The translations under genes and the position numbers were made by a program. A model generated the notes under the pieces. That model saw only the letters and a list, made by a program, of their open reading frames with translations, was not told where the DNA came from and did no database searches. A stretch of 63,039 nucleotides of DNA, the filler included. It is 16 parts of 16 records of this genome, joined end to end, with 100 filler letters (N's around TTAATTAATTAA, not from the genome) between each part and the next. Parts side by side here need not be neighbours in the genome. Positions count along the whole stretch, not along the records: positions 27,322 to 34,684 come from SRR9188676_869; 15 more parts are not named here. One strand, 5' to 3'. Positions 15,012 to 48,741 of this stretch are shown here, piece by piece. Each line of letters opens with the position of its first letter. Positions within the stretch are counted from its first letter, which is position 1.

Positions 15012-15989
15012 CAGGTTTGGTGAGAAACTAGGCTGAAATGAGCCCAGGAAATGCAAAAGAAGCNNNNNNNNNNNNNNNNNNNNNNNNNNNNNNNNNNNNN
15101 NNNNNNNTTAATTAATTAANNNNNNNNNNNNNNNNNNNNNNNNNNNNNNNNNNNNNNNNNNNNCCTTACAGTCATTGTAAAGTACTATTGCAAAATCGAA
15201 ATCCATCTTTTTGTCCATAATAAAAATGTCTCGCAAATAGAGCTGAATATAGCAACGACAACGAAAGCATAGTCTTGGAAGTCTTTAACTTATTATTCGG
15301 AAATCAATTATTTATTATAGTGTACACCTATCCAGGAAAGTAGGAAAAACAGCAAAAAATGGAATGAAACAAACTGCAAATCAAGGACAAAAAACGAAAA
15401 CGGGAAATGAGAATGTGTCCATAAATATTTGGACAAGGATTTCTTTTTCAAAAAAGAAAAAAGAAGAGAAAAAAAACTGAAAAGATCTTTTATATTTGCC
15501 AAATGTTTATGCGTTAAACAGTTACACATATATATATGAAGGAGTTCGTATGAGGCGTAATTAATTATATACAGGTATGTAATACAAACTCAACAAGTAA
15601 CAATACCATAAAAACAAAGAATACCGATATACCAGGGAACAAAACAATGTACAAAATAAATATCAAAGTCTCGTCGATGTCATCTCGGAAGCAACGGATA
15701 TGGAATATGGGTGGCTTCGAAGAAGAGGGGTATATGTTTTTTCCAGATCGAGGTGCTTGAATGAGAGAATCAACGATTTTTCAAATCCGGATCCTATTCC
15801 GCTAAGGTTAGGGTGACTTGTTCTTAGAAATTAGGGTTGTCGCAGATCAGGCTTCTTGAACGATATCGCAGCAGTAGAGACATGCGATAACAATCAGTGC
15901 TTATAGTTTGATCAGAACATCAGGGCTGTAGGGGTGGTAGGGTGGTGGGGGTTCGGGAATCATCAGCGTGTCAATTCTCAGAAATTCGT

Positions 15990-17216: not shown

Positions 17217-17921
17217 CTGTACACAGAGATTTCAGAGAGAGGGAACAAGAGATGAGCTTCTCTCTTGCAAAAAATGTCTACTTAAATAATGTTGTGTGTA
17301 TATATACTATCGTGCTTTCAATGAAGACCACGGAAAATGATCAATATTTGTCATTTCCATAACGGGCAAAAAGGCACGCGCTTGCTCCAAAAATAATGAT
17401 CCAGGAGAGAACAGCGAAATCGATTCCCTATCTTCTCCCAGGATTACTCATGTTATCCTTTCTCTCTGACGACAATATAACCCGATGGTCTGCTACAGAG
17501 AGCGCGGATTTTGAGAACTGAAATTTTCAATGAAAGTTTGAATGAAAATACAAGAACGGAAACAAAATGGCACAAAGCCTATCATGAATTCCTAAAATCC
17601 TAATTAGTCTACCAGAATCATTGCATAATCCATTGCTAANNNNNNNNNNNNNNNNNNNNNNNNNNNNNNNNNNNNNNNNNNNNTTAATTAATTAANNNNN
17701 NNNNNNNNNNNNNNNNNNNNNNNNNNNNNNNNNNNNNNNTGTTTGGTCCAGTGAAAGTAAAAATCAGAAAGGGGAAGGAATCAGAAAAAAAATCCCCAGT
17801 TTGCAACATGTCTATTTTTAGAAGAAGCTTTTTCTTCCTTGGAGGATATCAATACTTTTTTTTCCAGGGGGTTTCCAGGTTTGATTCAAACTGTGTCAGT
17901 TTCAAAGTCAAACAATATATT

Positions 17922-18042: not shown

Positions 18043-18497
18043 GTTGCCTTTGAAATATTCTTATTCTTATTTTAGTTTGGTGTTCTGTTTTAATTTATCC
18101 GTTCAGGTTTAGCATAGCCTCGACTCGCCTATTCAAGCTTGAGTCTCCATATCAATCGGCTTCTTGTTACATCTGAAGTTCGGAAGCTTGTGATGTCTGT
18201 TCACCGAGTTCAATTGGAGGTTTCATGTGATGTTCTGACGATGTGTGACACGAATATATAGTAAAGCCACAAATAGATTCGATATTATTGGTAAGATGGT
18301 ATGCCATATTATCATCAAATATGGCTATCGGGGGATACGGCCCAAATACAAAGCACACAGAAAAAATCACAGACTTATGCAAGGAGTGAATGAAATTTCC
18401 AACATCATATCGAGTCGGTACGAGTGCAAAGGTTCTGCTGTCAGATGGGGAAACACAAGAATCGGATGGTGAAGTGCTCAGGAAATCGGTCACATAC

Positions 18498-19482
18498 CTC
18501 GAGGCTTATTGATTTCATAATGCAAGTGCTTGGTGAAGTTTCCAATATCATATCGAATCGGTGCGGTTGCACGGGTCTTGATGTCAAAGATCAGGGGTCG
18601 TCCATTCCATGACGAACCATCCAGCTGAGACCGGAACAGGATCCCACCATGTTCAGAGAAGTGGTACACGTCCTGTGGCGTGATGGGTTCTGGGTTATTC
18701 TTCTTCAGCAACATTTTGCAGAACTGGTCATGAGTAGTGGTCATCTGGGTTTCGAGAATGCGCCCGAGTTGTGACAAAATGTAGTTCTGTTTGGGCCAGG
18801 GGGGCCTATACGCATCTACTGAATAATAACCTTTCATACCAGTTCGAGGGCGTAGCATTACCACAGCAGGTTTGACAGCAGATGGACTGAAAAGATTTGG
18901 TTGATTTTGAAAATCGGCACTAAAGGCGCTCATGTTAATGGGTCGGAATCGTGAGATAAGGTAGTAAATTTGCGAGAGAAGCGATGTAGAGGACGAAGAA
19001 GATGCAGAAAAAGGCCTTTGTCGCTTCTCCTGCAGATTTGCGAGAGTTGAATCTCGCGATGAGGTAGTAAATCCAGGGAGTTTGTCCAGAGCAATTTCGT
19101 CCAGGTTAAAAATTCGTTTCAAAGTGATAGGAAAATTGTAGTGAGTGGAATCTTGAACCCAGCGGGTTCCATTCCTAATAAAAGGATGCATGGGGTAGAT
19201 TCCCGCCTGACCACCAATCACGCTGTCAAGACCGTGCTCGAGGCGAGGCACCTTGCTTCGATTGTTTTGTCCCACGCGGATTGAATCTGTCTTGAGGGAT
19301 ATGGGGGTGTATTCTGTGGCATCTTTGCGCAAACTCGAGCGGATGTTGATGCCGCCGGAGAGCTTGCCATTAGGGTATGGTGCCATAGGGCAGTCCTCGA
19401 TACGCTGCAGATATCGGAAAGATTTGAGCCCATCTTCATGGGATTTGCGTGGCTTGAAATGAAAATGCCGAAGGAATCGCAT
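18498..19482 (-). CDS. PET127: Pet127 mitochondrial 5'-3' exoribonuclease, first exon (3'-partial)
   Basis: VPRLEHGLD, YNF, TSSRD, SSSTSLLSQIYYLIS.FRP, LSQLGRILE, FRSQLD, FDIKTRA..IRYD. Basic presequence-like N-terminus. Donor G|GTATGT at 18497. Confidence 0.88.
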
Positions 19483-20238
19483 TCCTATCGAAGGAAGATT
19501 TCGACTAAACTTACTCCGGATTTGTATTTGTTTTTTTTTTGTTGCTTTTCCTCTATGTTATCTACCTGATACAAATTTTCTTTTCTTGAGAATCTGTTTT
19601 ATATTCAACTGGGCTGGTCATTTCAAGATCATCTGATCCCTGTTGGTTCCTATTTTCTCTTTGTTTGGCTCGATGTATCAAAATGAAGTTGCTCCGATTT
19701 TTCCAGTGATGTCTCGTTCTTCGAACCATGTATTCAGCTTGTGTAGTGCTCAATCATGACGAATCTGAATCCAATCAATCCAATGATTCAGATTCCGAAC
19801 GAAAGAGGAATTACTGGATGATGATGACAGTGTGATGATTTTGAGAATAATAATGTTATTCTCGTCCATAAGCGTTGCTTTCAGTCACTCGGTACCCTCT
19901 TGAAGCGAACAAATCAGGATCGACAGGTATTAAGTGAAATAATATGGGATAAGCAGATGAGGAGGTATTTATTGAGCGATGGAGAATCAGAATCGTGGAA
20001 TCGTAAATTGTAGTAGGAAGTTCGTAAACAGCGCGCCAAACACGGACCCATGAGTAAGACCACTAGTCAGGAAAAAATCAGACAAATCTCAATCAGCATT
20101 CTTGGATCTGAGCTTCAGTTTGTCTCTTTGTCTGAGTACATTCTTTGGGAGAAATCAATCAAGTAATCAACTATAATCAACAATGTATACATTGGTATAC
20201 ATCGCCATTCAGATTCAGGGAAACAAGGAGCGAGATCA

Positions 20239-20418: not shown

Positions 20419-20650
20419 CTGATTGAGATGAGAACAAATAAGCCCAGAATGGTGCATAATAAATAAATCAGCATAATTTGCAGAATCTATNNNNNNNNNN
20501 NNNNNNNNNNNNNNNNNNNNNNNNNNNNNNNNNNTTAATTAATTAANNNNNNNNNNNNNNNNNNNNNNNNNNNNNNNNNNNNNNNNNNNNGTGTTTGCCA
20601 TCCCCGTTCGGGAAGAAAAATATAAATATCATACGCTCGAGAGAACATAC

Positions 20651-23127: not shown

Positions 23128-24372
23128 GTAATTTTCCCCTTACTTCGGGTCTCTGTTCGACAAGGAAAACCATTTTTTCACCACTTCCTCCCCGCCCCAT
23201 CCACTTCTTTTTTCCCTACCTCTTCCGTTATTGCTTCCTGCGTTTCCTCTCCCGCAAGTATTCTGGATCTCCATCCCAGGACAGATACTAATATCTCAGT
23301 CAGTATCATCGTCGCTTTGGTTTCACCATGATTTGGCACCCATCCTGTTTTTTTCTTGTGACTGTTGTGCCTGATTTTCTTCCAGTTCTTTTCCTTCCGA
23401 GTCGCTCACAGGTATCTTTTCAGATTCCCTGGATGTTTGACGAGGTAGGAGGAAAAGATTGGCCCTCATCTATCTGCTGGTTAGTTTTGCAGGCTTGCGT
23501 AAACAAAACTTCATTTCTCAGGAAATCACTCTTGTTAACATCACTTTAGAACTTGAACACTCTATTCTCCGTTGCCGCTATCCGACTTCCATTTCGTTTT
23601 CGTCTGATCCACACTCGCACTCTTGCCCACTGTTGAAAACTGTATGATTTTTTTTTATTGTTTTCCACATGATTTATCCCTTCTCTGTAATGAGGGTGTG
23701 GATCAGGCTGTAAGCTTTCAAAATGGTCGATGAAGTCGAATAGTGGTGGCAGAGAATAAAGTGTTCAAGATAACGCGACTAGAAATAAATCTTTCTTAGA
23801 ATGACTGTAAGATGTCTCTGAATTCACAGTTCATCTTTCTTTTAGCTGTATTTTGACTCTTGACACGTCAGGCAAGAGTGAAAATAAAGAAAACAGCAAA
23901 AGCAATGATTCTGGTAATTCTGTGCGAATGTTATTTATTCACAACAAAGAGGATGGTATGTGTAGAGGCGATTTCTCATGCATGGTTCTGACTCATTCAA
24001 CGTGCAATGAACATCTGGGATAAGGGATGTAGCTTAATATGATTGATTAATATTCTCAGTCCATGAATATNNNNNNNNNNNNNNNNNNNNNNNNNNNNNN
24101 NNNNNNNNNNNNNNTTAATTAATTAANNNNNNNNNNNNNNNNNNNNNNNNNNNNNNNNNNNNNNNNNNNNAGCCACCTTCTTTTCATTTCACGCTCGAAT
24201 TAATTCTATTGGATATTCTACCTATTATGGGCTAAACTATTTATTCTATCCTCGAGAAATGTGTTAACTGAGATTTATACGTTTTCCCACCTCAATGTTG
24301 CTGCTTTACGTCTCTAATTCCTTCGACTTGTTCTGATCAATCGATAATTTCTCGTGTTACTTCTGACCGCAG

Positions 24373-27183: not shown

Positions 27184-27321
27184 GTATGTAGCCAAGGGTC
27201 AACCACTCCCGAAGTTCCGGTNNNNNNNNNNNNNNNNNNNNNNNNNNNNNNNNNNNNNNNNNNNNTTAATTAATTAANNNNNNNNNNNNNNNNNNNNNNN
27301 NNNNNNNNNNNNNNNNNNNNN

Positions 27322-28202
27322 AAGGGAGAATACAGGCTGGGACCCTGTGCATTTCCAGCCTACTGATGTGAGGAATCCTGATAAAAACTCCAATTTCCCG
27401 AGCTGAATGAAAATGATCGATGTATCCAAGAAATGAAGATCGGATATGTTTTTTTCATTTGATTTGGATCGTGTCGTCCACAAAAGCTTGATATGATCCA
27501 TACAGGAGTGAAAGACAAAGGGAGAGCAATGCGGAAGAACAAACGATCTGTGAATTTCTCGATCAAGGTTGGGTTGTGACGTACTCTAGTTTGATTTCAG
27601 CAGGTTGATAGAACTCCACACCAATAGATCTGGCGAACTGCTTCAAGAATGGGTAAACATCTGATGCTAGAAAGGATCTTTCATTCACGAGTCCAGTGAA
27701 TGAAGCAGGCAGAGAGAGAATGATAGAAGGCAGCTCGTTTAATGGATATTGTGCATCAATATAGCCATTAAGAGCACGTCCCACTAGGATCAGCGAAAGA
27801 GAGCAAGATGAGATTTGGGGGAAAAGCAAAATTTTAGGAAATGAAGAACACCTACGTAATTGATCAGAGATGCTTGATTGTTTTTCATCAGGGAGCATGC
27901 TTAATGACTCATTCCAAAATTCTCTCCAGACTGCCCGAGCTGCGCGCGGAACAGACCAATCATTCTCGTCAAGAGAGTCATTCCCTGCCAGAAAACGCTC
28001 AGAATCGAGGAGAAACCAGCAAGTATTAAATATTTACCATCCATTTCTAAAAGAAAACTAATCAAGGTCACGAAATGAATGACCAGCAAGAGGAACAAGT
28101 GTGGTGTAAATTAAGCAACCTTCAAAAATTGCCATGTGTTTCCTTTTTTGAAAAGTGTAAACCGTGGAAAGCGACAAGGTCTTTTCTCAAAGAATGATCC
28201 AT
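27322..28202 (-). CDS. N-terminal exons of a protein with a DUF4062-like (NWD1/TEP1/NPHP3-type) domain; boundaries approximate
   Basis: SFTGLVNERSFLASDVYPFLKQFARSIGVEF resembles the SSTFxDxxxERxxLxxxVYPxLxxxCxxxGxEF signature. Confidence 0.55.
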
Positions 28203-28519
28203 CGATTCATCATATTGAGTGGATTTTGTCAAAATATCTCGACTCCACCTGGAGTCATGAATGAATGAGAGTTCTAGGAAAGGGTTCCATAGATCGCCGG
28301 AGAAAGTAAAAGAACGGGGCACAAAATCTTCTTTTTGATCGGGGAGGGAAGTTTAGGAGGGAAAATCTCTTTCCTCTTTCTTTCTCGCGATTGATAGCGA
28401 CATTTCGCTGAAAAGCTTTCACATTTCTCAGCTCGAGTGCTTTGCTTTCAGTCGCGTTTCGCTGTGTCATATCCCAGTAGGCGCATTTGGCCTGATTCTG
28501 CCCTTCTGAAATCAGCACG

Positions 28520-31500
28520 ATGAGAGGCCTGAGTCGCAATTCGCTCTCTCAGCCGCGATTATTCTCTTCTGAGGGGTCTCTACGACCGTCTGGCATTCGC
28601 CTGCTTCGACAATATCTGTCGAATCCAACCTTTCGGAATGATCTTTTCTCCATCACTCGCTTGCCCTCAGCGCTATTCTCCACGCTTTCATTCGGAGGAC
28701 GGCGGCAAATCGATTCAGCCACTCGAGTGACATTTTCTCGCGCCTTGCACTCGGCTCGACCTCTTACTCACCAATGTCCTCATTGCACCTATAAGGGGAA
28801 AAGGCTCGAATCACTTGAGCAGCACATGAGCATGGCCCATGCCACTCCTGTGAACACACTGACAACGCCATTTCGTGATCCCTCTTCCCCTCCAACCAAC
28901 GCACGAGTCGAAAGCTCTGCTTCTTCACAGCACTGCATGTATTGTGACTATTCCGCTCCTGAACAAAGTCGCGTCGACAGACACATCATCGCTTGTCACA
29001 GCCATCCGGCTCCATATCGGTGTGTGTTTTGTCCATTTGAGGCATCAGAGAAGGGCGCACTCGCAACACATATTGCATCCATGCATGACCCTACGGCACG
29101 CTATGAGCCCATACACCCATGTATGTATTGCACCCATATTGCAGCCGACTTGGATGATTTGGACTTTCATGAGAGCACGGTTCACGAATTACCTCCCTTC
29201 GAGTGTGTCATCTGTGGCTTCATGACTATCTCCAAGTCCCATCTTGCCAATCACATGACCACTCTCCATGACCATGCTCATCCCTTTCGATGCTCTCAGT
29301 GCTCGTATTGTGCCTCTACAAAGCTACATCTGGATCAACATGTCATCCAGACCCACTCATCTTCCTCTTCTACGGTTCTACAACAATGTGACTTTTGTGA
29401 CTATAAATCCTCCAATCGCCACCATTTCATCAAACACATTACCAGTGCTCACAGTTTTCCCCCCTATGCCTGCGTCTATTGTGACTATTCTACGCCTCTC
29501 AAGAGGCGATTGGCGGTTCACATCAAAATGAACCACAATGATCCGGCGAACCCATATAGTTGTTATCAATGCAATTTCAAAACCTCGCAAAGAGATCTGC
29601 TGGATCAACATACCAAATCAGAGCATAATAAGCCAAAACCTGCTGGCGACACGATATCTTCATCAGCACTTGAATCAGTTGAGTCACTTCCGCTTTCCAC
29701 ACCTGCCCCTGCAGTTATCGCTATCATGGATGCTTTGATTGGACCGATCCAGTTCCCACCGGTTCCAATGTGTATCGATCCATCACCGCTTTTCAAACCC
29801 ATTCCCATATTTATTCATGCCAGACTTGAACAATCAAACAGTCAAGAACACTCGCATCCTTCATTAAATATGGACACACCTCCCACATCCATTGATGATA
29901 CCCAGGATCACTTCCATTTCCACCCTCCATCCCCTTATACACCTCACCCTCTTTTACCACTCTACTCGAAACCTCCAGTGTTACTTTTATCCGACACGAA
30001 ACCCGAGCAAATTTTACTTTTGCAACCTTTACATGTTCCCCCACCGCCTGCTCCTCCTGCCACTACCACTCCCATTGATGATGAGGTCTTTTGCAACCAT
30101 CGTCGTCAGGCATTTGCCACTGGCCCTTCCACACAATTATGGAGCCAAAAGCAGCCCTTCCAATGCCCGCTCTGCTCATACAAGAACACTAGTTTCCTCG
30201 TGATGGATACACACATGTCGGAAACACATCACCTCAGAAGATGCTACATGTGCCTGTATTGTAACCATATTGAAGCGTTGGAACAGGATCTTGAAAACCA
30301 CGTGCAAAGCACCCATACCTCTGCACCCTACACATGCTTCCTTTGCAATTACACTGCACCCGATCGAGACCATCTCATGCATCACATGATGTTCATCCAT
30401 GATCGATCTCAGCCGTATCAATGTACACAGCCCGGATGCGATTTCAAATCCCAGTTCCGAGAGGGACTCGATAACCATGTGGTATATATGGAGCGAACTC
30501 ATCAGAAATTACTGAATTCTCGGCCTGACAATCCATCATCTTCCTCATCATCATCATGTTCTTGTCCATATTGCGACTATACAGTCACTGATCAAGCTGA
30601 GAACTCCACATCCCTGACTGATCATATCACAAGCGCACATCACACTCCGCCCTTTCAATGTGTTTATTGTGATTTTGTTAGCACCCAGAGCCGAGAAGAA
30701 CTTGGTCACCACATTGCATCCTTACATCACCCTACAGAACCATACACATGCTTCCAATGCGATTTCCGAAGCCCGGATCGCGCCAAACTCACCGCACATC
30801 TCAACTCCAAGCATCGCGCGATTTTCACATGCGCATACTGCAGCCAGCGTTTCCTAAACCAGAACGATCTAGATCAGCATGTCACCGCTGCACATGGTGC
30901 TTCAGCTCCCTATCGATGCTCCCATTGCCCCGAGCAGAGCAGTACTCTCGATGCACTCGCGTTCCATATGACCAGCGCGCACGCCCAGATGTATCGCATT
31001 CTCAAGTGCCCTCTGTGTGACTTCTCCACCAGGAGGCGCTACGAGTACAAGGCACATATCTTTGAGAAACACTCAAACACGCGCTCCCTCCTGCGAGTAA
31101 GACGTTGTGTCCTGTTTGAATATCTGGACCTTCTATTCGTTTATAATAATTATTGTTTTTGTCTTTATTTTCAGTGAGCACTTTTTTCAGTGAGAACCTC
31201 ACCGGGAGTGGGGGTGGGGGGAATATTTTGGCTTGATTTTCCCTTCCTTGACATCCTCTTCATTCAAAAGATGGAGATGGTGTGTCGCGGGTTGTCGTGA
31301 TGATTGTGGATGATGGGACCGTGATATTTGCTTGTTGCATTTCTTGTATTTCAGCCTGTCAACAAAGAAGATGTTTTTTTTTGTTGATTTCTCCTTTTTT
31401 GCTTCTTTGCTTTTTGTTTTATTTCTAGAGTATGGAAGTTCTTTTTTCCACTCTTCTTTCATTGAATCTTCGTTTTTTCTCCGTTCGAGGCACTTACCGC

Positions 31501-33318
31501 TTCTGTCCATCTCTCTTCCATCCTTCTCTTTCTTTTCTCTCTGAACCCTAGGGTGCGCCTGTGATCTCCGGTTCTCTTGCCTCAGGTGTTGTCACATTGA
31601 ATCCGTCACCCCAGAAATCGCCCAAGATAGCATCCTCAACATCCACCTCAACCGCTGTGCCCACACCTCCTCCCCTCCATCCCCCCGATCTTCTCTCTTC
31701 TTCCCGGCCACCTTCATCATCATCATCATCACGACCGGTAGGGACCTCTAGCAGTAAGAAAAAGCCATCACCTGCTCATCAGCACCATCATCCGAACCAG
31801 CATCATGTGACCCACCGACCTCCAGCACGAAGCATCCCCAAGGTTTGGCACTGCGACCACTGCGACCTGAAGTTCACTGATGGCCCTGAGCTGACCAAGC
31901 ACATGCTCTCGGTCTATGAAACCTACTTGAACGACGTGCATCATCAGTACTACCAGGACATTCAGAAGCAGAAGCACAACTATCAGATATTGCAGCGCCA
32001 GTATCAGGATCATGAACAACAAAAGCAACAGCAAGAACATGATATTGATCCTCGCACGGCTAAATCGAGCGCTCCTACCAACGTTTCCTCCTCCTTTTTC
32101 TCACCTTCATTCCCACCACTCCCACCCACTGTCCCGCCGCCACCTCTCATTGTGATCCGCACGGATGCTAGCGATAAGGGTTGGGGTGCGACGCTGAGCT
32201 ATTCTGGCACGCAAATGCTGGAAATATGGGGTGCATTGCCGCCCATTGCAGACTGCTCTGTGACTGCCGAGCTCTTTGCGATCAAGATGGCCTTGCTGAG
32301 TTTCCAGCCCTTCCTTTCGCATCGCAATGCTCTGCTTCTGACCGATGCCATGGGTGCGGGGCAGTGCATTTTCCGAGGCGCAAGCAAATCGGCCAATGTG
32401 GATGTAGAGCAGTTGGCCAGGGAAATCCGCTGGATGATTCAGCGCGATAACCTCGATTTGACCATCAAGTGGATCCCGAGAGAGATGAACACGGTGGCTG
32501 ACCGCTTGTCACGTGCCAAGGACATGAGTAATGCTGCATCTGTGCACTGGTGTGAGCGGCTGGAATCCGCCTGGGGGGAGTGGACATTTGCCAGATTGGC
32601 CGATAATGACTCCATTATATCACAGCGCTGGTTCAAAACCGTGGATACCATGTTTGGGCCTCACACCAAGCACCGTTTGTGGGAATTTGTAGGCGAGGAA
32701 AATTCATCAGTGAACAATACCACCCAGAAATCATACACTACAGACTTGAACTTGAATCCTACAGACATTAGTAGTAACTCCCCGACCGCAACAATACCAA
32801 AGAATGAACTTGGGGAGAAGGATACAATGAATAATAACACCAGTCCTAGTCAGAACACTACTGCACCGGATTCGGACTTGAATGAGAGCTGGGCGGGCGA
32901 GAACAACTACATCCACACGGACCTCACTCGCATGGACGCCATCTTGCGGCACGTTATTACATGCAAGGCCGAGGCCACCATCATCGTGCCTGCCATGCCG
33001 GACCAGAAATGGTGGGAGCTACTCGTGCAACTTGATGGGAAACATCTTTATGGTAGCGGTGAGGGTAGTGTGGGTGGTCAGCAGTGGCGAGAGTGGGTAG
33101 TGGAAGCAGTCGAGCTGCCCTATGAACCTGAGATGCACCTTCGTGGGTTTGGCAAATGCAACAATCTTGCGGGAGATGGGCAAGCACAACAATCTGATCA
33201 GTCACACTCTGATCCCCCGCTCAGACTATTTGCTCTGAAATTGCGAGGTGATAAGTTTGATAACTCCGTCCCAGCCAAGCGTTCCTTCTCATCTGTATTT
33301 TTCAACTGGTTCTGGTGA
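28520..33318 (+). CDS. Two-exon gene (28520-31096 + 31552-33318, ~1447 aa): presequence-like N-terminus, ~19 C2H2 zinc fingers, DIRS-type RNase H, degenerate DIRS MT-like domain
   Basis: 19 CxxC...HxxxxH repeats in exon 1. Phase-0 donor CGA|GTAAGA and polypyrimidine-CCCTAG|GGT acceptor join the two ORFs in frame. RNase H motifs TDASDKGWG, AELFAI, LLTDA, WIPREMNTVADRLSR. Confidence 0.8.
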
Positions 33319-35096
33319 GATTTGTGAGAGGGAGATTCTATCTATATACACTCCCGATTCATTGCACATATCGAACACCTGCATCCCAATATCGATCTAT
33401 CGAGGCCAATACCTGTCATGTCAAGAACTCATATATCCCCATATTCCATCTCTTAAACACATGATACCCAAATACCCATACCCATCTCTCCATGCATCGA
33501 CATATCCACTCTTATTTTTCTCATCAAGATGATGCCATCAGATTGTATCAGTTTCAGATATTTATAGACCCACCTACAGAATCAAACATCCACATCCACC
33601 CCAGCTTCCTCCAATCTCGCAGTCCTCGTTTCACCACATAATTATTTATGATATCCCCTTTCGCATTTCTTACACACCTGTCTGCGATTAAGGATCATGT
33701 TTTTCTCTGTTTTCCCTCATAAATGCTGTATTTTCACACATTTGGTTCACCGTAAATCAAAACCGACCTTAGTTGAAACTCTCCCTCGGGTGGTCGGGTT
33801 TGATTTGCGGAGATTCATTCTCCTTTTCTTGTGCAAGCTGTCTTTATTGCTTGTTTGTGTCCCTGTATTTTCGATTTTTTGTTCTGTTTTGTTTGCGCGA
33901 GTATTTTTTATTTTCTCGTGAGATTTTTCATATTTTTTCTTGTTCATTTGTCGTTTTCTTCATCGACGCCTGTCACATCACATCTTGCACCGCCTACCCG
34001 CTCCTATTTCCTCTAATTTTTCCCTGGATTTTCTTGCTCATTCTCCGGACTCTTTTTTTTTTCCTTTCTGGACCTACGGACCTTGACATTTCTCTTGTCT
34101 TTTCTTTCTGAATATGATTCCATATATGGACAGTGAGAGAGGGGGCCGCAATCACACTAAAACGCCTGAAATGGGGAGGTTCTTAACCTGAGAAGGGTCT
34201 TAAAACCGCTTCACGCAGAAGTGTCAGTAAACCCTCTATTTTGTGTGCAGCCGTATCATTTTTTGTTTTGTGTTGTTCGATTTTTGTTTTTTCCACCCTC
34301 ATATTTCGACCGTGTCTTTGTTCATAACCAAATAAATCTGAACCTCTTTTCATCCATCATGCTCTTTCCATCGATTGTTTCTATTCGTTTGCTATTCTAG
34401 TTATTTTCTTCCCTGCTTAATTCATAATATCGACGGTCGTAGAATCGGATTGTTTCTGATTTCCAGTTTTTTTTGATAACATGGATGTGTTCTGTCTCGG
34501 ATAGTTCTGGTTCAGAACTCGTTGGTGAATCGCAACGCTAGAGTGCTAAACATGAAAGTACGAAAGTATGTAGCAAATTGTGGAGAAGTCATCGAGGGTC
34601 TGCATCCCCTGTCTCGATCACGAATGATAATGAGTGATAAAGAGCTGATAAAGAAGTAGTATAGGGGGGCACTTGGGGCAGTCTNNNNNNNNNNNNNNNN
34701 NNNNNNNNNNNNNNNNNNNNNNNNNNNNTTAATTAATTAANNNNNNNNNNNNNNNNNNNNNNNNNNNNNNNNNNNNNNNNNNNNATTCTTATTTCATTGC
34801 GGCTGAACGAACGAAATGAGTGAAAAGAGAAGAGAAAACCAAAGGACCTCCCACCAAATTAAACCGGGGTTTAACGCTCAGCTCGCCCTGATTTTCTCTA
34901 TTTTTTTCTTCCCCTCAACGAGTTCTTAGTTCATCCGTCTGCCTTTCCATCCTGTCTTTCGTAATCTACCATTTGGTTTCCCTCCGAATAACCACCTATT
35001 TTAGTATGTATGGGTTCTATCTGTGTAACATACTAACGCTGGCTTTGTATTTTTCTGTTTTCCCGCTCTTTTTCTTCTCAGTGGCTGTCGCACATC

Positions 35097-37147: not shown

Positions 37148-39704
37148 GTATCCACTTCTGTGTGTGTTTGTGTCATTCCTCAGAGGCTAATCCTTTTCGA
37201 GCGTTTAACTAGCATATCAACGACGCCAATAGGACATGCTACCCTGGAAGGAATGAGATTCTCCGAGGCCATGCCGTTCCACTCGAACCATAATTCTCAT
37301 ACACCCCTTTTTATAATAATCCTAATTATAATAAGAATAAAACCTTTCGGTCTTTCTCTCCATTTTGTGTTTGTTACTACCTATTCTTCATTAATTCATT
37401 CATTTCAACCTCGCATGCGTTCCCGCGATTGGACTTTTCTAACTTGGCCACGGTTTTCCTCTGTCTCTCTCTCTCTCTCTCTCGCTCGNNNNNNNNNNNN
37501 NNNNNNNNNNNNNNNNNNNNNNNNNNNNNNNNTTAATTAATTAANNNNNNNNNNNNNNNNNNNNNNNNNNNNNNNNNNNNNNNNNNNNGGGGGGGGAGGT
37601 TGGATAGATAAAAGAATGGAATATTGAAGTGTGGGTGAGGATAGGTGGCCGTGATTGTGGTTCTGGGACTTGGGGTGAATATGGATACTCCAATATCTGA
37701 TGAAATTTTGCCTAGGATGACATGATGAGTGTTAGGGTCTACGATGAGCACCCGCTGCGAGCTATTTTCTCCAAGGGTATCATCAACGATGGTCCGGATG
37801 AACTTGGCGGATGATCCGCTTCCGGATTTCATTGAATCGACTGGCGCATGTCTTCGTCATTCTTGAGGAGAGAAGTAAGACGTTTCATGTTGAGTTTCAG
37901 GGTACAGGGTTCGAGTCTAACGGGCGGTCAGCGTAGTCGAGAAATTGTAAAGGGATACTGAGACTTCCCGCGCAGATCGGAGGAGGCGGCCTGGTACGCC
38001 GGGGGGAAGGTACCCCTCCTATCGAACACGACGTATGGCCACGAGAGAGCCGAGGTCCGCATACGAGATCGAGAAGATAAAATGGTAGAATTACCTTCGA
38101 GGGTCTTAGTCTTGAGACCAGTAGACTCCGACGCCATCCTGCCAGATGAACCAAGAGGCAAGCTAGAATTAGGCTTGAAAGGACTTTGCTGGTGCTATCA
38201 GTGGTATTATGAATGACGTTTAAAGTGTGTCTTTCATACGACTATGGAGAGCTTTCACAAGCGTATGAATAACGACGAAGGAAATCCACGTAAGCGATTT
38301 TATATTCAGGAAGAAGGTGAAGAGCGATGAGTTTGATTTTACCTTCGACGAAAGTGACGATACATTGTTTTTTTATCTAAAATAAAATCAGTTCATTTCC
38401 TGTACTCGGTTTGCTTTCCGCTCGTGGTTTGCAATTTCTCATCTTTTTTCACGCGTTTTGATATTCATAATACATCACATTCATTATCTCAGATCCTGGC
38501 TGAAACCCTTTTCGAATGTTTCAATGACGATTGAATCTCATTTACACTGCTCAGTTTCCATACTTCCTCAACAGTTAGCTTTCGAGGAATTTCTCGTATT
38601 GGTAGAGTCCACGATAAAATATCTGGTCTAACTATATCGTTCTCTTTTGATATGTTGTAGTTTCCAATCCCCGGGCCCTCATCCGATCAAATTGGGTCAC
38701 CTTAACGAATGCTCACTCTTCACCCCCCTACAATACAAAATAACAGTCAATTTCCGTTCAAAGGGGGAGAATTTCAATTATAGCAGGGGAATGAGATGAA
38801 TGTGATTCGATGACGTACCAAAAATGTGAAATCGCGGATGTAGAGATGCTCGCCGCCCGGTGCCTGCTGTCAAATGAATGCGACAGGGATAAGTTCGAGT
38901 GGCCGGCGCGCTACTCGGCAGAAGCCCGCTCAATTTCGCATTCGCGCTTTCGAGCCACAGTATCAAGACTACGGTTAAAGTCGCGACCCAGGGAAGCAAC
39001 GCTCCAGCCAGACATTTCAAAAGTCATGGTGATAAGAGTTTTTCCTCGCTTTCGAATGAAAAAAAAAATAGTAAGAGACGATAACGGGGTTGAAAATCCG
39101 GCCTTGTGTCTTTTGCGTAGCAGATTTTGAGCATGAGAATATTCATGGAGGTCTCCGATAGAAGTGATGTGGATGGACTCGATACTGCTGCTCTAGGATC
39201 TGTCTTCGAAAGGGATCCGGAAATGTCGCAAAGCGTTCGTGAGGAGAGAAAAATATTCGTCTGGATAATGGCCATTGAGGCTGTTGAGGAACAGAGAAGT
39301 AGCTGCACCATCTGAAATACTTCAAAAAGGATTCGTAACCCGGAGCATCATATCACATCTCTCTCAAGGAGTAGCAGAGGAATCATATACAGTTCTTGTT
39401 GTGCGAACAAACCTTGTTGCTGAAAAGTTGAGAAATGAGGGGGAAGACAGACTATTCTAAACATTCTCAAGAAAGAAACACTAATTTCTACAAAACGAAG
39501 GCGTCTGGTAGCACTAAAATGTCCCCATCCTCTCGATGGGGCACAAGCATCGGGTTTCTTGAGTCAGGAGATGGTTTCCCGCCGAACCTATCATAATCGT
39601 TTTACTTCACGTGAACTCCGAAGTAAAACTTAGATAAAAGACCTCTACTGACATTCGATTCGAGATGATTGGAGAATACAAAGAGAGGGGAGCAGTTCGC
39701 TGCA

Positions 39705-40079: not shown

Positions 40080-41051
40080 CTGAATACGACGATTGATAGA
40101 AAATGACAAAATTGGGATTGAGGTCAGAGAGCCAAAAATGCATGGGTCATGGTCTATGTGGTGATCCGTAGTTAGAAGTAAACAAAATAAAATAAACTCA
40201 TAATTCCCAGAATCNNNNNNNNNNNNNNNNNNNNNNNNNNNNNNNNNNNNNNNNNNNNTTAATTAATTAANNNNNNNNNNNNNNNNNNNNNNNNNNNNNN
40301 NNNNNNNNNNNNNNTTATTCATGCTTGACAGATCATATCTAAGAAACAACATCGCTGGTCGAACTCTTACTCTTCTGTTTTTAAGCTGTACTATGTCTGC
40401 AACCGGGTGATCATGTTCCGCGAACACAAAGTTTCATCATAATGACGAGCCGTATTCCATCTAACCGGAAGGGTTGTAACGAGAGACGGCGAGAAAGGGA
40501 TCTGGCGAAGTCGGTTTCAAACATGTGGTATCAGTCAGTGTTTTTTGGAGGATCAGATCCTTCAATCCCTGAACCTATTGGACACTGATAATTGACAATT
40601 TTGAAGTTGCAAATTCCGTTGTGAATTTTGTTTTGTGAGTGAGGACGTGAGGAACGAAGATTAGTCTAAATATGCATGTAGCGGCTGGCACGGCTGGGTC
40701 GAGTCTTGTTCCAAGAAATGAACACATAATAGTGAAAAAGACATAGCCATCTGGAGGAAAGTACAAGAGGATGGGATCCTGGTTCGAGTTTTTCACCGCA
40801 GATCGCTGGCACATGCACAGATCTGAGGTGCGAACAATATTTGTTCACAGGAGAATTATGCGATCATCTCGTAAAAACAATAGATATGGCAATTCATATC
40901 AGTGTACCTGTGAGGTCAGAGAATCTGGCCAAGTTCAAAGATCAGAAAGAAGAAAGAAGTCGCGAAAAAAAAAAAAAAAGAGAAGGTGACATGACGTGTG
41001 GATTGGGAATCTGACAAATCTCATCCAAACGACTCAACTTTCTTTGGGATC

Positions 41052-44000
41052 ATGTCCTCACTTTCAGAGGTTCAAGACCCTCTTGATGATGAAGAAGATG
41101 TATGTAGGATCTGTCGCCTCGAAGCTACACCCGAAAATCCTTTGTTTTATCCGTGCCGATGTTCGGGATCGATCAAATACGTTCATCAGGTACCTGCTCA
41201 CCTGCTTGCTTGCAAAGAACGAATGCTCATGATCATATGCACTTCATTCTACTCTTCTTACATCCAGGTTTGCCTCCAAGAGTGGCTTCAGCATACGAAA
41301 GCCGAACGATGTGAACTGTGTGGGCTGTCATTCCAATTCACACCTGTCTATGTGGAGGGAACGCCTCAATCCTTGTCTCCTCGAGAAGTCCTATGGGGAA
41401 TTGCAGAGAAAATGTGGTCTAGACTTCTTTATGCTTTTCGGTTTCTGCTTGCTTTGATCCATTGGTGTCTGATTATCCCACTAGTGACCTTTTATATGTT
41501 TCGGGTTTCCTTTTTGCGGCCCTTTGGCGATGGGGGATCATCAACATCCATTCTTCCTACTACCATCAGAGCTGCATCATATGATTGTATATCTGGCATA
41601 GTTCTCTCTATCGCGATCCTGCTCCTCTTCCTTGGATTAGCTTCCCTGAAAGAACATTTGGATGCTCGCCAACCTGCACCCCAAAGGGAAAGAGAAAATA
41701 ATAATAACAATGATGGTAATGACAATGACAATAATATTCATTTCGATGATGGGATCCCTGTGGTCCAAGATTTACGTGATGATCACGATGCTGTCCCTCT
41801 CGATCGGAATGATGACATCCTTGCTGCACTCCTCCACAATGAAGATGCAGATATCCCAGTGGAGGATTTGTTGGGTCTCACTGGTCCTGTATGGCGCCTA
41901 GCATCTATTGCCATGCAAGTTATTACATCCAATTTGGTGTGCTTGGCATTGTTCATTTTCATCCCCTTTCACTTGGGTCGCATCGCACTCTTTTTATACC
42001 GCCTTGCATTCCATTCCCTGCTGTATAGCGTTGGGCCCATTGTTGTTGTTGCTCCTATCATCGCCACCACAAATGACACCGCATTAAGTAATCACACATC
42101 ATCCTGGGCTTTAGTGCTGGCCTCCGAGGACTGGACCGTTCATGGTCTGAACCATATTCAAGCAGACTGTTTCACCATTGCTTTCGGGTACCTGGCAATC
42201 AGCTTATGGATTGTTCTCGAAACTACATTCCAAGTTCAATCGCCCATGACCTCCTATGTTCGCCCTGTCTTTGTTGCGCTCTATACCTTGATTCGAGCGG
42301 TGATTATTCTCTGTACTGAATTGTTCATTTTCCCACTGCTGTGTGGTGTTTCCCTGGACTTGTACACACTCGAACTCACCAACGGCACCTTTGAAAAGAA
42401 GTTCGAAACCGCTCGAAACTTTCCTGGATTTTCCTGCTTTTATCACTGGATTGCTGGTGTGTGCTACATGACTCATATTGCTGTGATCATTTCCAGCTTG
42501 CGCGAAATTGTCAAGCCCATATTTTTGCGCTATTTCCGCAACTACAAAGATCCGGACTTCCATCCTTTTCTCGATGCCATAGACGCCCCATTTTACAAGC
42601 ATGTGCGCAGGTTGCTCGGCTCTGCCCTCATTTACCTTTTCCTGATTCTTATGACTGTTCGGCTGCCTGTGGTTTTGGCAGTTCGCAATTTCCCGAGCAT
42701 GTTCCCCTTAGACCTCTCAGCCACTGATCCCTTGTCCATTTTCACGTACCTGGAATTTACACTGTTGTACTTCCTTGTGCCCATGATTATTGAACCTGAG
42801 CGCGCGCACAATTTCACCAAGTCTGTGCTTTCGTTTTGGATTGTGAATGCATCAAAGCTGCTGGGTGTTTCGCAGTGCATTCTGCGCACTGAGGATGATC
42901 TGGAACTGTTTGAAGTTGCGAATGCGAATGAGGATGGTGATGTGGGTTTGGGTGTGGAGCGGGATGGCGAAGAGACCAGGGAGGGAGAGGGTCAGGGGCA
43001 GGGAGAGTTTGAGGGGCAGTTGTTCGATGAAATCCCACAAGGACCATTGCCCCATGAGCACACGGCGACTCAGTATCATACACACCCGCAAATTTTCCAT
43101 GCAGATCATATGCCCAGCACTTCACATGACCATTCTGAACACCAGCATGACTATTCCCATCATTACCAGCCTCAAGATTATCATCAGCAATATCATCATT
43201 CCAACCTTGAGGACGCTTACACTCAGCAGCACACTGGATATGTGGGAGCATATCATGCGAATTCCGGCATCCCTGACAATTATGATACTAACAATGATGG
43301 CATTGCTGAGCATGATATCTATCCGGGAGGGGAACGGGAACTGGAAATTGAATCTGATATAGCACGCGAGGTGCCGATCCAGCCTCAGCATGAACACTAT
43401 GCACATGACTACTCATACCATTTCATTCCTGCACACTCACATTCTCACTCACACACCCATCAGCATCAGCAGCAGACATCCCACCCTGAATACTGCTCTC
43501 ACCATGGTACGTTCTCTCAATGGAATTCCTTGACTTCGTCCTTTTTTTCTTCTTTTTTTCACGATCACAGTTGATAGACCTACTCCTGTGCGAATTTGTT
43601 GATGCTCCATTCCAGACTATTTTCTTCATGCTCATTTCTTTGTGATCGAGGATTTTGAGGTATTCAGACGGTGGACTTCATTCGTGCTAAAAATATATCT
43701 AGTCTCATGAAAAAAAAATTATCCGCCCGCCGAGGCACACCCTCTGTCCTTTCCCCCGCGCATACGTATTCACTCACGCTCACTCCAACATATATCTGTA
43801 CATACGCTCATCTTTCTCCCTCTCCCTCTCCCTCTCCCGCACCTCTTTTTGTTTCGCTCTCTTTTTCAGCATACGACGATGATATCCAGTCGCCTGCTTA
43901 CCAGCCTGAATCTTCAAGTGGATCAGTGTCCTCTAACAACCACACCCTGCCTGACCCATCTTGCTCTGTCCTACCGCATTTATCCCTGCCCCCATCATCC

Positions 44001-46071
44001 TTGCCCACTTCAACGCCCGCAGATAATCAAAGTCATCAGAACAGTCGCACTCCCATGTTGCTCTCCCATTCATCTCAATCATTATCACAGCCAAGTTCCA
44101 TCCCCGATTTCTCCCCTGATGACAGCTCCCCTCGCCTGCCTGAACAGTCTTCATCTTTGCCTGCAATGCATTCCCAATCATTAAGTTCATTCTGCTCAGA
44201 ACAAGACATCTCATTTATTCACATTGTAACGGATTCTCAGAATGATGCACAACTTGCTCAAGTGTCCATTGTGCAAGGGGAAACACCTATCTCAATCATG
44301 CAGCATGCAAGTGTCAATAGCGAGCACGATATCAACCCAATTGTAGACTTACCACTTCATACTTCATCTGAGCTCTCCTCTCCATCACCATTTCCATCAT
44401 CCCTGTCCTCCGAAGTTCGCTCTTACGCTGTCCATCCCCTCTCTCACTCTCACACTCTTGCCTCCCCCACTCCCAGCCACAATCATTATATTCAAGCTCC
44501 CCTTCCCATGCCCGCTTCCGATTTTGATTTTTCTCAGGATTCTGAAATTCATACTACTCATTCCACTTCCCCTCATCATGCACACCCTGCATTCCCCGAC
44601 CTCACGGTATCTTCCCCCTATCCTGCCAGCCCCCCTACCAATATCTCGCATACCCAAGACGTTGCCTCTATTCCACTCTCATCTGACACTCTAGAGTCTC
44701 ACACTCACGAATCCTCACATGTCCAGTCATCTCCAGTTTCTCTAGATCATACCCCTATCATTGCACAATTCCCTTTGAAATATAATTCCCACTCGGACTT
44801 CCAACTCCAGGACACCCAACCGGTCATGACACATGACCCATGTCCCTCAGATTCTTCCGGCACTGATCCTCGCGACCTCATTTCCCTCTGTCAACATTAC
44901 CCCTTGGATCAATACAATCATCCCACTCCCACTACAGACCCGATTCTGAATGATTCTGACAGCACCTTCGCGTCTTTCACTGCCTTCCCGAATGCTCCAT
45001 CTATCTCTGAAATTGTACACTCCACCTCTCAGAATTCCACCCAAAATCCGTGTTATGAATCCCACAATGACTCCACTCCACGACACACGGAGACTAAGTT
45101 ATTTAGCAAAATTGATATTGAGAAAGACGCCACCCAACATGATCCAGCTACAGACCACCTGCAAGATGTCTCTCATTCTCATAATCCACATCATCCTGAA
45201 CATGAACCTGAACACGAACACAAACACACTCACGATGCCAGTGCTGATCAGGGAGATGCCTATGCTTATGATCCTCATCACGGTGAAGAGGCTGCGCAAT
45301 CCGCTCAACTACCCGACACTAGTACTTATGAATATGAACATGCTCCTGATGCTGACCATAGTCATGATGATGATGCTCACAATCATGGCCCTAATGAGGG
45401 TGACGACGAGAGTGCACAGTCGGCTGAACCACTTCCCACTGGTTCTCAAATCGTACGTCGTTGTGCAACACTCATTATCTTTTTATTTTCCCCCCTCGAG
45501 TCATGAACACCTGGGTTCTTCTCTTCCATGTGCTAGTCTATCAGTTATTGCTTTCCGCGGTCTCTCGACTCGAATCCAGTTCTTTGCCGCCGCCCAGGAC
45601 ACTGTTTGAGATGCTCTCCCTCTTTTTTCTTGTGTCATTGCTTCCTGATCCTACCCACAGGCTAGTCATCAAAATTCATCATACCTATGATCTCAGGTTA
45701 TTCTGTTTCATGTCATCTCTCTACCTCCGTACCTCCCTCTCGACATGTCGACCTCTCCTTTGCACTCATCTGATTTCCACTTCCAATTGGTGATTCATGA
45801 GCTCTTGATTGATCTATATCTTCTTCCTCCGTCGGCATGATCCATGCAAATAGGTCTACCCTCGGTTTTACGTTCCGCGTTTGACTCTGCTTGTGATCCT
45901 TGCCTTCGTTGCCACGGTGCTCGCGTACACATCGCTCCTCGTAGTCCCCTCCTATGTCGGGCGGCAGTTCTATTCACTGGTCAACTGGCACGGGGTCAGC
46001 ACAATGTACCAGTTTGCTACTGGCGTGTACCTCATCTGGGGATTATTGATCTTCTCGCAGCAGATCAGGCC
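41052..46071 (+). CDS. MARCHF6: MARCH6/Doa10-type RING-CH membrane E3 ligase (3'-partial); introns 41190-41267, 43507-43869, 45453-45853
   Basis: CRICR...LFYPCRCSGSIKYVHQ|CLQEW..CELC, EDLLGL.GP, ELFIFPLLCG..LD, HW..G, DPDFHP, and multiple TM segments. Confidence 0.92.
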
Positions 46072-46410
46072 GTAAGTATCTCAGTCTGAAATTCATCAAA
46101 CGAATCTTCCTGGGATAATTATTTAAGATGGAGAATCATGTTGGTATTGCACATCAAGTTTTGTCTTCTCATCGATTCGGCTCTACGTTCTATCTCATTT
46201 GTTCCAAAGTGATGCTGCCATTGTGGAAAACTCAATCAGCCGGTCACCTACCCTACCCTACCCTACCCTACCCNNNNNNNNNNNNNNNNNNNNNNNNNNN
46301 NNNNNNNNNNNNNNNNNTTAATTAATTAANNNNNNNNNNNNNNNNNNNNNNNNNNNNNNNNNNNNNNNNNNNNATATATATATATATATATATATAATAT
46401 TATTAAATAC

Positions 46411-48288
46411 CTCAGCAACAGCGGCTTGAAGTTTTGCAGGGTCGGAATGGCTCTTCCGATGGCGTGTTGTGATGGGTACAGGGAGGGTATCCACAAAACT
46501 GAGGCGACCGGGGGTAGCCGTGGTACCCCCCCCTACTCCTGGCAATGACGTGGAGGCCGAGCTCGACCCCCCGGGTAGAGATAATATGTTATTTGTAAGG
46601 TTACTGACGTTACTATTATTATTAATAATAGTTGACGTGTTATTGTTCAGGTTAGTGGGGTCGAAACTGATACTGGCGTGGTGGCTGTGGTGGACAATGG
46701 GGGTACGGGACTGGGAGGGCGAGGGGGGGGGTAAGGCTGACGTCACGATGTGCATGTTCATATGGGGGGTAGTTGATGTTAGGGAGGGTGAAGAGGATAG
46801 GTGTTCGTTGGAAGGATTGGGGGAAGGATGAAGCGTCGGAGATGATGAGGGGAAGGATGATGATGTGGCATTGGTTGAGTTCATAGGGGGGGTAGGGGAG
46901 TGTGAGTGCGATAGGGGGGGTAAATTTGAGGATGGGGAACTAGATACCACTACGGACGGAACTGGTTTGAACCCTGATCCCCCCCTGACATGTGAAGTGT
47001 TACCCCCCTCCATATGCACTGGGGATGTGAGGCGGGTTGAGTTCGAATTAGGGGGGGTATGGAATGATGATCTTGAGAGGGGGGGTGGAGAGGGCGCGGG
47101 AGATATAGGGGGTCTACTTGAGCTAGCATCCGTTACAGAAATAAGGGGGGTATGCGCGCGGTGTGGACCTAGGGGGGTAGAGGGCGTATGGGGGGTAGGA
47201 GATTGAGAAGGGGATGGTAGGGGGGTAGAAATACTAGACCCGATACCTCCATTAGAATCCTGGCTGATATGACGGATAATACTACTGTCCGAGTCTTGTG
47301 AAGTGATGGAAAGAGAGGCCTCTTTTACACCCCCTATATTCACATTCTCTAGACTATCATTGCTACTATAGCTGCCCGAGCTAACAAATTTGGTATTTTC
47401 GGTCCCGATTTGATGAATATCCAAATCATCTTTGCTCGACAGAGATGACTTTTTGTCCTTGGACTTTTTCTTTGCGCTGCCGCTTTTGCTGGAATTTTTA
47501 TCCTTAACTTTCTCCTGTTTGTCTGAGTCGGTTTCTTCTTTGGATTTGTCTTTCTTTCTCAGAGAAAGCCGCTTCCAAAGGGATGGGTGGGATGTGTGTT
47601 TCTGGGTGTCAGGTGTATGTAAATCTTGAGAAACAGGGGTGGAAATTAGTGAGGTTGGTGGTGTGGCTGTGGGTGTGAGGAAAGAGGGAATCTGTGTGGA
47701 AGCGTGTGGAATGGTCGGGTTGGGCGAGAGAGAAGATTGTGTACCCAATGAGGATAGGGGGGTGGTGGCGTTAGACCCGGGGTATGAGATATTGGCGTCA
47801 AAGTGTGAGCTGTTGGTAGGGTGATGAGGTGGCGTATGGATGGCCGAATGGACGGGCGTGGGAGTAGGCGTGAGACTACTATTATTAGTAACAGTGCCAG
47901 CCGTGACAGCGCTGCTATTAATAGAACTATTCGGTAACGGAGTCCTGTTACTCGGCCCACTACTAGAGGGGGGTAACGCCGAATTTGATAAAGAATGGAA
48001 ACCAGAGCTGCCGAACATAGAGGGGGTAGCTTGCAACGCAACGCTACTAGTAATAGCACTAGTGTTACTATTAGTAGAATTTCCGGTAGAGGCTGCAGTG
48101 GGAAGGTTCGGCAGGGAAGGTGAAGGGGTAGGTGCGGAGGAAGGTGTCGCCGACACGTCATGTGCCACGTCATTGATGTGGAAAAAGTATTCTTCAATGT
48201 ACTCGAAAAACTCGAAGCTGAGCGCGACACGTATGGGGCGTATGGATACCTCGAATTGGTCATACACTCGAATGCCACAAATATCACC
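46411..48288 (-). CDS. Internal exon of a BLTP2/Hobbit/FMP27/SABRE-like bridge lipid-transfer protein (Apt1 region plus low-complexity insert)
   Basis: GIRVYDQFEVSIRPIRVALSFEFFEYIEEYFF resembles the GGI.V.EHFEVNVVPLTIQLT..FF..M..FFF motif. It is followed by ~600 aa of S/P/T-rich sequence. Confidence 0.65.
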
Positions 48289-48741
48289 CTGAAATACCAG
48301 AGGTTCACATTCACAGACATAAAGACACAGACATAGATAAAGAGCAAATAAGAAGCGGCATCTGTGCGCTATCTATCTATGCACATCAAATTCAAAATCT
48401 ACAATGTGTTTCAAAATCTCGAAACTGAGTGCGAAACGAAAGGGCCGAATGGACACCTCGAATTGCCACATATCACCCTGAAATATCAGAGGTTCACATA
48501 CACAGACATAAAGATGCACACATAAGTAGACNNNNNNNNNNNNNNNNNNNNNNNNNNNNNNNNNNNNNNNNNNNNTTAATTAATTAANNNNNNNNNNNNN
48601 NNNNNNNNNNNNNNNNNNNNNNNNNNNNNNNCAAGATCTCGGGCTTGGTCACGAACCCCACAAGGGGTGCTTGCGTAAATAACTAAGCCATATTTACAAA
48701 GGCATGAATTTCAGATAGTAGAATCGTCACCGTCACCGTAC

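Follow-up and report, generated by a model that had tools for sequence, protein, structure and literature searches.

Host genes derived from the gag, protease, integrase and envelope parts of retroelements are well known, and the recombinases of Crypton elements have also been co-opted. Among described systems, the Crypton-derived ZMYM2/3/4 and QRICH1 are host genes co-opted from tyrosine-recombinase elements (excerpts of PMC13465315 and PMC3212892), NYNRIN is a duplicate of KHNYN joined to a pol segment of the Ty3/Gypsy kind that includes RNase H and integrase (excerpts of PMC9447858), and in an engineered enzyme an RNase H fused to a zinc finger cleaves the RNA of RNA:DNA hybrids at a defined site (excerpts of PMC3526281). 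DIRS-like pols are marked by the order reverse transcriptase (RT), RNase H (RH) and methyltransferase (MT) (excerpts of PMC3266345 and PMC13465315), and Ngaro-like elements are without an MT downstream of RT/RH (excerpts of PMC13465315). Here we analysed a DNA window of 63,039 nucleotides (nt), which consists of 16 short contigs with 100-base linkers between them (N44, TTAATTAATTAA, N44), and describe a zinc-finger/RNase H locus on contig SRR9188676_869 (window 27322..34684, 7.36 kb). Two open reading frames (ORFs), the proposed exons 1 and 2, specify an array of C2H2 zinc fingers and an RNase H with an MT-like tail of DIRS type. Judged from sequence, the locus is probably, though far from certainly, a real fused host gene that has co-opted the tail of a DIRS pol.

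The locus resembles a DIRS1/PAT-type pol in that the invariant D, E, D, D residues and the N..AD.LSR block are common to both RNases H, and in the colinear GPHT, W.GENN and A.ATxIVP..P...WW blocks that lead to the natural C-terminus. Unlike that pol, it lacks the RT, the repeats and the second ORF, and its MT-like part is without the Asp and the PP, contains a long insert and would be fused to C2H2 fingers, at a best identity of 35-39%. As in NYNRIN, a host gene for a nucleic-acid-binding or nuclease protein would be combined with a fragment of a retroelement pol, with the RNase H standing without an RT (excerpts of PMC9447858). The donor of NYNRIN was, however, a long terminal repeat (LTR) element, the partners there are KH-like/NYN and integrase rather than C2H2 and MT-like parts, and NYNRIN is therian with orthologues, whereas none was found for the window gene. 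A finger also tethers the RNase H in the engineered RNase H-zinc finger fusion, so that the distance between bound site and cut is fixed (excerpts of PMC3526281). That enzyme is man-made and has one designed module, whereas the locus would specify about 19 natural fingers and a retrotransposon RNase H whose activity is predicted. The engineered fusion reportedly uses a bacterial RNase H. Cellular RNase H1, with its hybrid-binding domain, likewise joins a type 1 fold and its tetrad to a separate nucleic-acid-binding module, a likeness that is model-based for the window protein; the window RNase H differs in having no PF00075 match and in having retroelement pols as its nearest relatives. What the Crypton-derived genes retain is a domain from the recombinase of a DNA transposon, whereas the window gene would retain RNase H and MT from the pol of a retrotransposon. 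Excerpts of the full-text literature, including PMC3266345, PMC5603734, PMC13465315 and PMC9447858, described neither a host gene that stems from the pol of a DIRS element nor a natural protein in which a C2H2 array is linked to an RNase H.

RNase H domain and its DIRS-type ancestry

The retroelement-type RNase H lies at 32131..32520 (+) and was matched by Pfam RVT_3 on exon 2 at 22.2 bits, marginally over the cut-off of 21.6. The motifs TDAS, AEL, TDA and ADRLSR were all present. Residues D22, E57, D82 and D134, with codons at 32164, 32269, 32344 and 32500, were kept and correspond to the four RNase H columns that are invariant when DIRS-like pols are aligned in sets of 22 and 92 sequences, which bears out an earlier reading of this DNA (the original prediction) that all four acidic residues are retained. 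In an AlphaFold model from the 92-sequence alignment, the RNase H blocks had a predicted local distance difference test score (pLDDT) of 85-97, with one block at 69. Foldseek with this RNase H model returned 162 chains at E<=1e-3, solved RNases H among them; the top match was 3aly_A (S. tokodaii RNase HI; E 1.4e-6, template modelling (TM) score 0.70 on the target), and the matches also comprised Ty3 RT 4ol8_B (E 6.2e-6) and cauliflower mosaic virus (CaMV) RT 8r0s_A. As modelled, the domain is a type 1 RNase H fold. No Pfam match to the cellular family RNase_H (PF00075) was obtained at E<=0.1, and a sequence search of the PDB gave nothing better than E 0.38 (archaeal RNases HI).

The relatives of this part were pols. 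A phmmer search with the RH-MT part of 405 amino acids (aa) against 1.84 billion representative proteins gave 805 matches at E<=1e-3, of which 70 had E<=1e-10; the lack of any match at E<=1e-30 indicates that the window protein itself is absent from the representatives. The best match, P0003, had an E of 2.7e-20 and 35% identity, with best identities of 35-39% overall. Two or more matching stretches were found in 142 of the 150 matches listed, and all relatives among the matches listed were pols of the DIRS-type RT-RH-MT kind. P0003 had no RVT_1 match, and we considered it as a possible relative without an RT but rejected this, because it starts inside the RT YxDD motif and is hence a truncated pol. 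Pfam analysis of 20 relatives placed RVT_1 upstream of the RNase H in 17 and a Dam-family match (E<=0.01) downstream in 14, which exceeded the curated Pfam cut-off in two of the 14. A word-indexed search with exon 2 returned two DIRS-like pols, proteins of 630-640 aa with PF00078 (28-29% identity). One named cluster of relatives is a multicopy set from Hydractinia and the others are mostly metagenome or read-assembly proteins; the Atlas clusters matching the RH-MT part, with minor shares of RT_RNaseH or Dam, agree with this and add nothing. The RT-RH-MT order of the relatives points to a DIRS-like pol as the source of the tail, and a descent of RNase H and tail from a DIRS-type RT-RH-MT pol is well supported by the sequence comparison. 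The grouping with DIRS rather than with cellular RNase H1, as foreseen in the original prediction, was also upheld by the missing PF00075 match and by the retroelement pols as nearest relatives.

The degenerate DIRS-type MT-like domain (32611..33285, +) follows the RNase H. GPHT, WAGENN and ATIIVP..P...WW..L were present, colinear with DIRS-like pols down to the natural pol C-terminus. The tail had been taken as the RH-MT tail of a DIRS pol, and these colinear blocks sustain the descent, but the tail is not intact, since the invariant Asp and the PP of the MT part are lost. The Asp of the GPHT.DRFA block, held by all 108 relatives that span both the RH and the MT part (108 of 152), is replaced by His at 32671, making the window protein the sole exception, and the PP of the NN...PPF block is replaced by Thr-Asp at 32917-32922, where Pro-Pro is held by 88% and 90% of relatives. 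We take the lost Asp and PP to correspond to the S-adenosylmethionine-binding and (D/N)PP(Y/F) motifs of N6-adenine methyltransferases. Signature residues of N6-adenine (Dam-like) methyltransferases were not found in the MT-like part, and two conserved Trp were also lost. Between GPHT and W.GENN, a 60-residue low-complexity insert (32683..32865, +), N/S/T-rich and in frame, takes the place of a conserved block; it was recognised from the alignment and from its low pLDDT (<50 over residues 195-255 of the 405-aa query). No Pfam family, Dam included, matched the MT-like part at E<=1, compared with Dam at E<=0.01 in 14 of the 20 relatives. Modelled alone, this part had a pLDDT of 67.5, and its best Foldseek match was at E 0.11. 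VIA-align rows for the MT-like model were almost all class I methyltransferases with middling scores, none at Z 8: the best was 6irx_A, a cap adenosine-N6 enzyme (Z 7.2, root-mean-square deviation (rmsd) 3.2, 119 aligned), followed by T4 Dam (Z 6.3, rmsd 3.5, 97 aligned), TaqI (5.8) and E. coli Dam (5.6).

The two halves of the tail have decayed unevenly. At columns at least 80% conserved among the 108 spanning relatives, the RNase H kept 11 of 12, the one miss being Leu to Val, and the MT-like part kept 9 of 17. Mean identity of the window protein to its relatives was 0.293 in the RNase H, where the relatives share 0.304 mutually, and 0.230 in the MT-like part, where they share 0.331. Terminal branches were 1.71 for the RNase H (median 0.76) and 1.89 for the MT-like part (median 0.65), each ranking 1st of 109; the whole RH-MT tail also had the longest terminal branch of 109 (1.80 versus a median of 0.72), with the frame still open. 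We simulated random substitutions on the window DNA at 0.20 and 0.25 per base, indels excluded; these rates alter about 41-49% of residues, which equals the share lost at conserved MT columns. For the 241-codon MT part, the two bracketing rates gave an open frame in 0 and 1 of 600 trials; for the 405-codon RH-MT part, it was 0 of 600. Assuming that the MT losses postdate the capture, neutral decay would hardly ever have spared the frame. Losses after the capture are likely but not certain, the Asp being otherwise held by 108 of 108 relatives.

Gene architecture and the proposed splice join

ORF 1 (+ strand, 28496..31177) comprises 893 aa from stop to stop, with an in-frame TGA at 28493 and the first ATG at 28520, and ORF 2 (+ strand, 31552..33318) comprises 588 aa with its closing TGA at 33316. 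From sequence, a phase-0 intron of 455 nt is proposed at 31097..31551 (+): the donor GT at 31097-98 stands within GTAAGA, the acceptor AG at 31550-51 stands in a TAG behind a long pyrimidine tract, and both candidate junctions fall between codons. Exon 1 would then cover 28520..31096 (+; 859 codons from the first ATG, with an R/S/L-rich N-terminus, two C2H2 arrays and a Pro-rich linker) and exon 2 31552..33318 (+; 588 codons plus TGA), for a predicted spliced product of 859+588=1447 aa. That the two ORFs can be joined by a canonical phase-0 intron at 31097-31551 into a product of about 1447 aa had been claimed beforehand, and the splice sites and the phase were confirmed in the sequence; both frames were also open over their full length, as the claim of no stops or frameshifts had it.

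Several features of the join are consistent with an intron. Because the TAG at 31549-51 doubles as the stop preceding ORF 2, no earlier acceptor is possible in the ORF 2 frame. Position 31097 is the sole GTAAG donor among 19 GT sites in 30800-31175. GC content was 0.49-0.52 in the exons, 0.39 in the intron and 0.40-0.42 in the flanks. Between the acceptor and the first Met of ORF 2 lie 117 codons without a stop; the other five frames of this stretch contain 3-11 stops, and composition-matched shuffles were open in 3.4%. The first Met (codon 118) falls inside the degenerate finger-like unit of exon 2. In a kinase gene of the window, two homology-guided introns have a GTAAGT or GTACTT donor and a pyrimidine tract with CAG, and resemble the proposed intron. 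Codon-usage scores against other window ORFs were about zero in all frames and uninformative, and third-position GC was 0.63 in the RNase H part (32101-32640), versus 0.48 in exon 1 and a range of 0.41-0.51 across eight further long window ORFs. We infer that both ORFs are spliced into one gene.

Exon 1 matched five C2H2 families above the Pfam cut-offs, namely zf-H2C2_5 (65.1 bits, cut-off 27), zf-C2H2 (53.1, 25.2), zf-C2H2_4 (41, 27), zf-C2H2_16 and zf-C2H2_2. The regular expression C-x2-4-C-x9-16-H-x3-6-H found 18 canonical C2H2 units in two blocks. The first block (28775..29626, +; aa 86-369) has nine fingers, and the second (30164..31072, +; aa 549-851) has nine canonical fingers and one extra unit, C-x4-C-x12-H-x7-H, whose wide His spacing was seen in the translation. 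Between the blocks lie about 180 aa of Pro-rich sequence. Exon 2 opens with a Ser/Pro/His-rich part, continues with a degenerate C2H2-like finger (31846..31944, +; Pfam zf-C2H2 E 0.0044, 17.8 bits, below the cut-off) and then with a Gln-rich stretch; the degenerate finger reads C-x2-C-x12-H with Tyr in the position of the second His. The 18 regular units, the wide-spaced one and the exon 2 unit agree with the 19 C2H2 fingers plus one degenerate finger counted in the original prediction. The first 85 residues (28520-28774), with 13 Arg, 0 Lys, 15 Ser, 13 Leu and 3 acidic residues, resemble an organelle presequence.

Remains of a mobile element were sought around the gene. A gag, an RT, a recombinase and terminal repeats had all been reported missing from the contig. 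The linkers define a true contig of 7.36 kb, not 63 kb, with flanks of about 1.2 kb upstream and about 1.4 kb downstream of the gene, so that "nothing else on the contig" spans just these flanks; for RT and repeats the claim stood, as follows. When the 152 relatives were compared with the window by tblastn, matches occurred only at 32149-33123, with none elsewhere better than E 0.02, which indicates that the window has no RT relic and no second copy. RVT_1 had no Pfam match on exon 2. Homology to pols begins exactly at the first RNase H strand, and the alignment gave no trace of the RT connection region in the 190 residues before the RNase H. No inverted repeats of at least 25 nt were found in 27322-34684; the direct repeat pairs of the contig were just two fingers and one 72% AT-rich match, with no credible terminal repeat, and the contig had no tandem repeats. 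Pfam families were found neither on two upstream-flank ORFs nor on 10 of 14 downstream ORFs of at least 50 aa, and no search aimed at a tyrosine recombinase was made. The window had no tRNA genes and no Rfam matches.

Proposed role and competing explanations

The reading as a host gene that captured the C-terminus of a pol agrees with the DIRS origin, the absence of an RT relic and the open frame; the part of it that assumed an intact RH-MT tail fell. In the mechanism that we propose, the 3' exon of a host gene would have taken over the C-terminal RNase H and MT-like part of a DIRS-type pol, with the capture breakpoint exactly at the RNase H start, and the captured part would be fused to about 19 C2H2 fingers through a Ser/Pro/Gln-rich linker. 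The fingers would supply the nucleic-acid binding once given by the now-missing RT, and the RNase H would cut the RNA strand of RNA:DNA hybrids at finger-bound places, its targets being locus-specific R-loops or the cDNA:RNA intermediates that retroelements form. The MT-like fold may survive solely to support the RNase H structurally. That the product is a catalytically active, finger-tethered RNase H is plausible from its residues, although we lean slightly towards doubt. More tentative still, and on balance rather doubtful, is the proposal that it is the first host gene from a DIRS-type pol and a natural zinc-finger-programmed RNase H, acting against reverse-transcribing elements as a restriction factor, or as a locus-specific R-loop remover.

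Several points weigh against the fused, active enzyme. No orthologue of either exon was found in protein and metagenome searches: the search with exon 1 gave only generic zinc-finger proteins, 21 in number, with identities of up to 31% over 15-70% of the query; the near-length search with exon 2 gave just the two DIRS-like pols mentioned above and a search among longer proteins none, which is weak evidence; and metagenome scans with the RH-MT part and with P0010 gave no match. The RNase H branch, the longest of 109, may mean relaxed constraint in that domain too, and the contrast between RH and MT is based on 29 columns. The source DIRS family is unsampled, and some of the divergence may predate the capture. 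The proposed intron is 455 nt long, compared with about 190 nt for the two kinase introns, and 156 donor/acceptor pairs leave the frame open, so that an in-frame join alone is neither unique nor diagnostic. Retroelement RNases H, moreover, often rely on their own RT for substrate binding.

Some of these points bear on an alternative in which the fused gene is real and the RNase H is not a nuclease. The RNase H and MT-like fold would then form a binding or scaffold module, which binds hybrids or nucleic acid ends or decoys DIRS proteins, and the protein would be a zinc-finger regulator or a restriction factor that works without cleavage. The MT-like half has already been stripped of its signature residues, and the long RH branch fits this alternative as well. 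The RNase H role in the retroelement-derived NYNRIN, too, remains unclear (excerpts of PMC9447858). However, the four invariant acidic residues and 11 of the 12 RH columns were kept while the neighbouring domain decayed, a pattern expected from selection on catalysis. We consider a protein without cleavage unlikely, although of the alternatives it survives best.

The ambiguity of the join bears on a second alternative, that of two unfused genes, one for the zinc fingers, with its stop at the TGA at 31175-31177, and one for the RH-MT part, with its start at the codon-118 Met of ORF 2. The 156 possible in-frame joins make an open join undiagnostic, and the proposed intron exceeds both kinase introns in length. 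Against two genes, 117 open codons precede the Met (shuffle frequency 0.034, with 3-11 stops in the other frames), this stretch contains a finger-like unit with the Met itself inside it, and an acceptor with a long pyrimidine tract stands exactly at the first possible base of the frame. Taken together, two separate genes are distinctly improbable.

The long branch and the missing orthologues also suit a dead or dying insertion, in which a DIRS pol fragment next to a zinc-finger gene, unexpressed and unselected, has kept its frame open through chance or because it is young. Yet the tail has lost the Asp held by 108 of 108 relatives and 8 of the 17 conserved MT columns, at which level of change the simulated frame was open in at most 1 of 600 trials; moreover, two in-frame inserts were kept, no RT remnant was found and the break falls exactly at a domain border. 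We regard a dead insertion as very unlikely. An undescribed multicopy mobile element, consisting of a finger array and an RH-MT tail without an RT, is the least credible explanation, since the shortness of the contig (7.36 kb), as is often seen near repeats, is set against a single copy in 63 kb of 16 contigs, the absence of terminal and inverted repeats from the contig, a gene assembled unbroken, and a C2H2 motif in none of the 152 DIRS-like relatives. The fused host gene remains the reading that we favour.

Other genes of the window and biological meaning

The linkers stand at 2098-2197, 12356-12455, 15064-15163, 17640-17739, 20491-20590, 24071-24170, 27222-27321, 34685-34784, 37489-37588, 40215-40314, 46274-46373, 48532-48631, 54515-54614, 56734-56833 and 60868-60967. 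Because the contigs are joined by linkers, gene order across them is meaningless, and any ORF running up to a linker is truncated there by the end of its contig. On the contig of the zinc-finger gene, a 156-aa ORF without a Pfam family (27563-28033, -) lies about 490 bases upstream of the zinc-finger ATG in the opposite direction and may be a divergently transcribed neighbour. The kinase gene mentioned above (49979-53160, -) is receptor-like: a periplasmic phosphonate-binding-type domain (PF12974, E 1.6e-15), unusual as an ectodomain, stands before a Cys-rich part and a membrane span, after which comes a protein kinase whose coding sequence is interrupted by introns of about 190 nt. The sole other mobile-element gene seen in the window is a pogo-type transposase ORF (14016-15107, -; DDE_1 E 6.4e-17, HTH_psq), which runs into a contig end. 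An ORF at 18490-19557 (-) has a Pet127 mitochondrial protein domain (E 4.2e-44), and a 383-aa ORF at 12567-13718 (-) has a PHD finger. An 859-aa ORF with an N-terminal RING-variant domain (40995-43574, +) is followed after 85 bases by a 615-aa ORF without a Pfam family (43659-45506, +), and the two may be one gene. Long ORFs without a Pfam family were also seen at 214-1965 (+, 583 aa) and 46318-48372 (-, 684 aa).

Provided that it is expressed and active, the fused protein would be the natural equivalent of the engineered zinc finger-RNase H enzymes, and it could provide a model for how an RNase H regains substrate binding after losing its reverse transcriptase. The uneven decay of the tail, in which the RNase H was kept and the MT motifs were lost, bears on the role of the MT in DIRS elements, whose fold may be structurally relevant even without its motifs.

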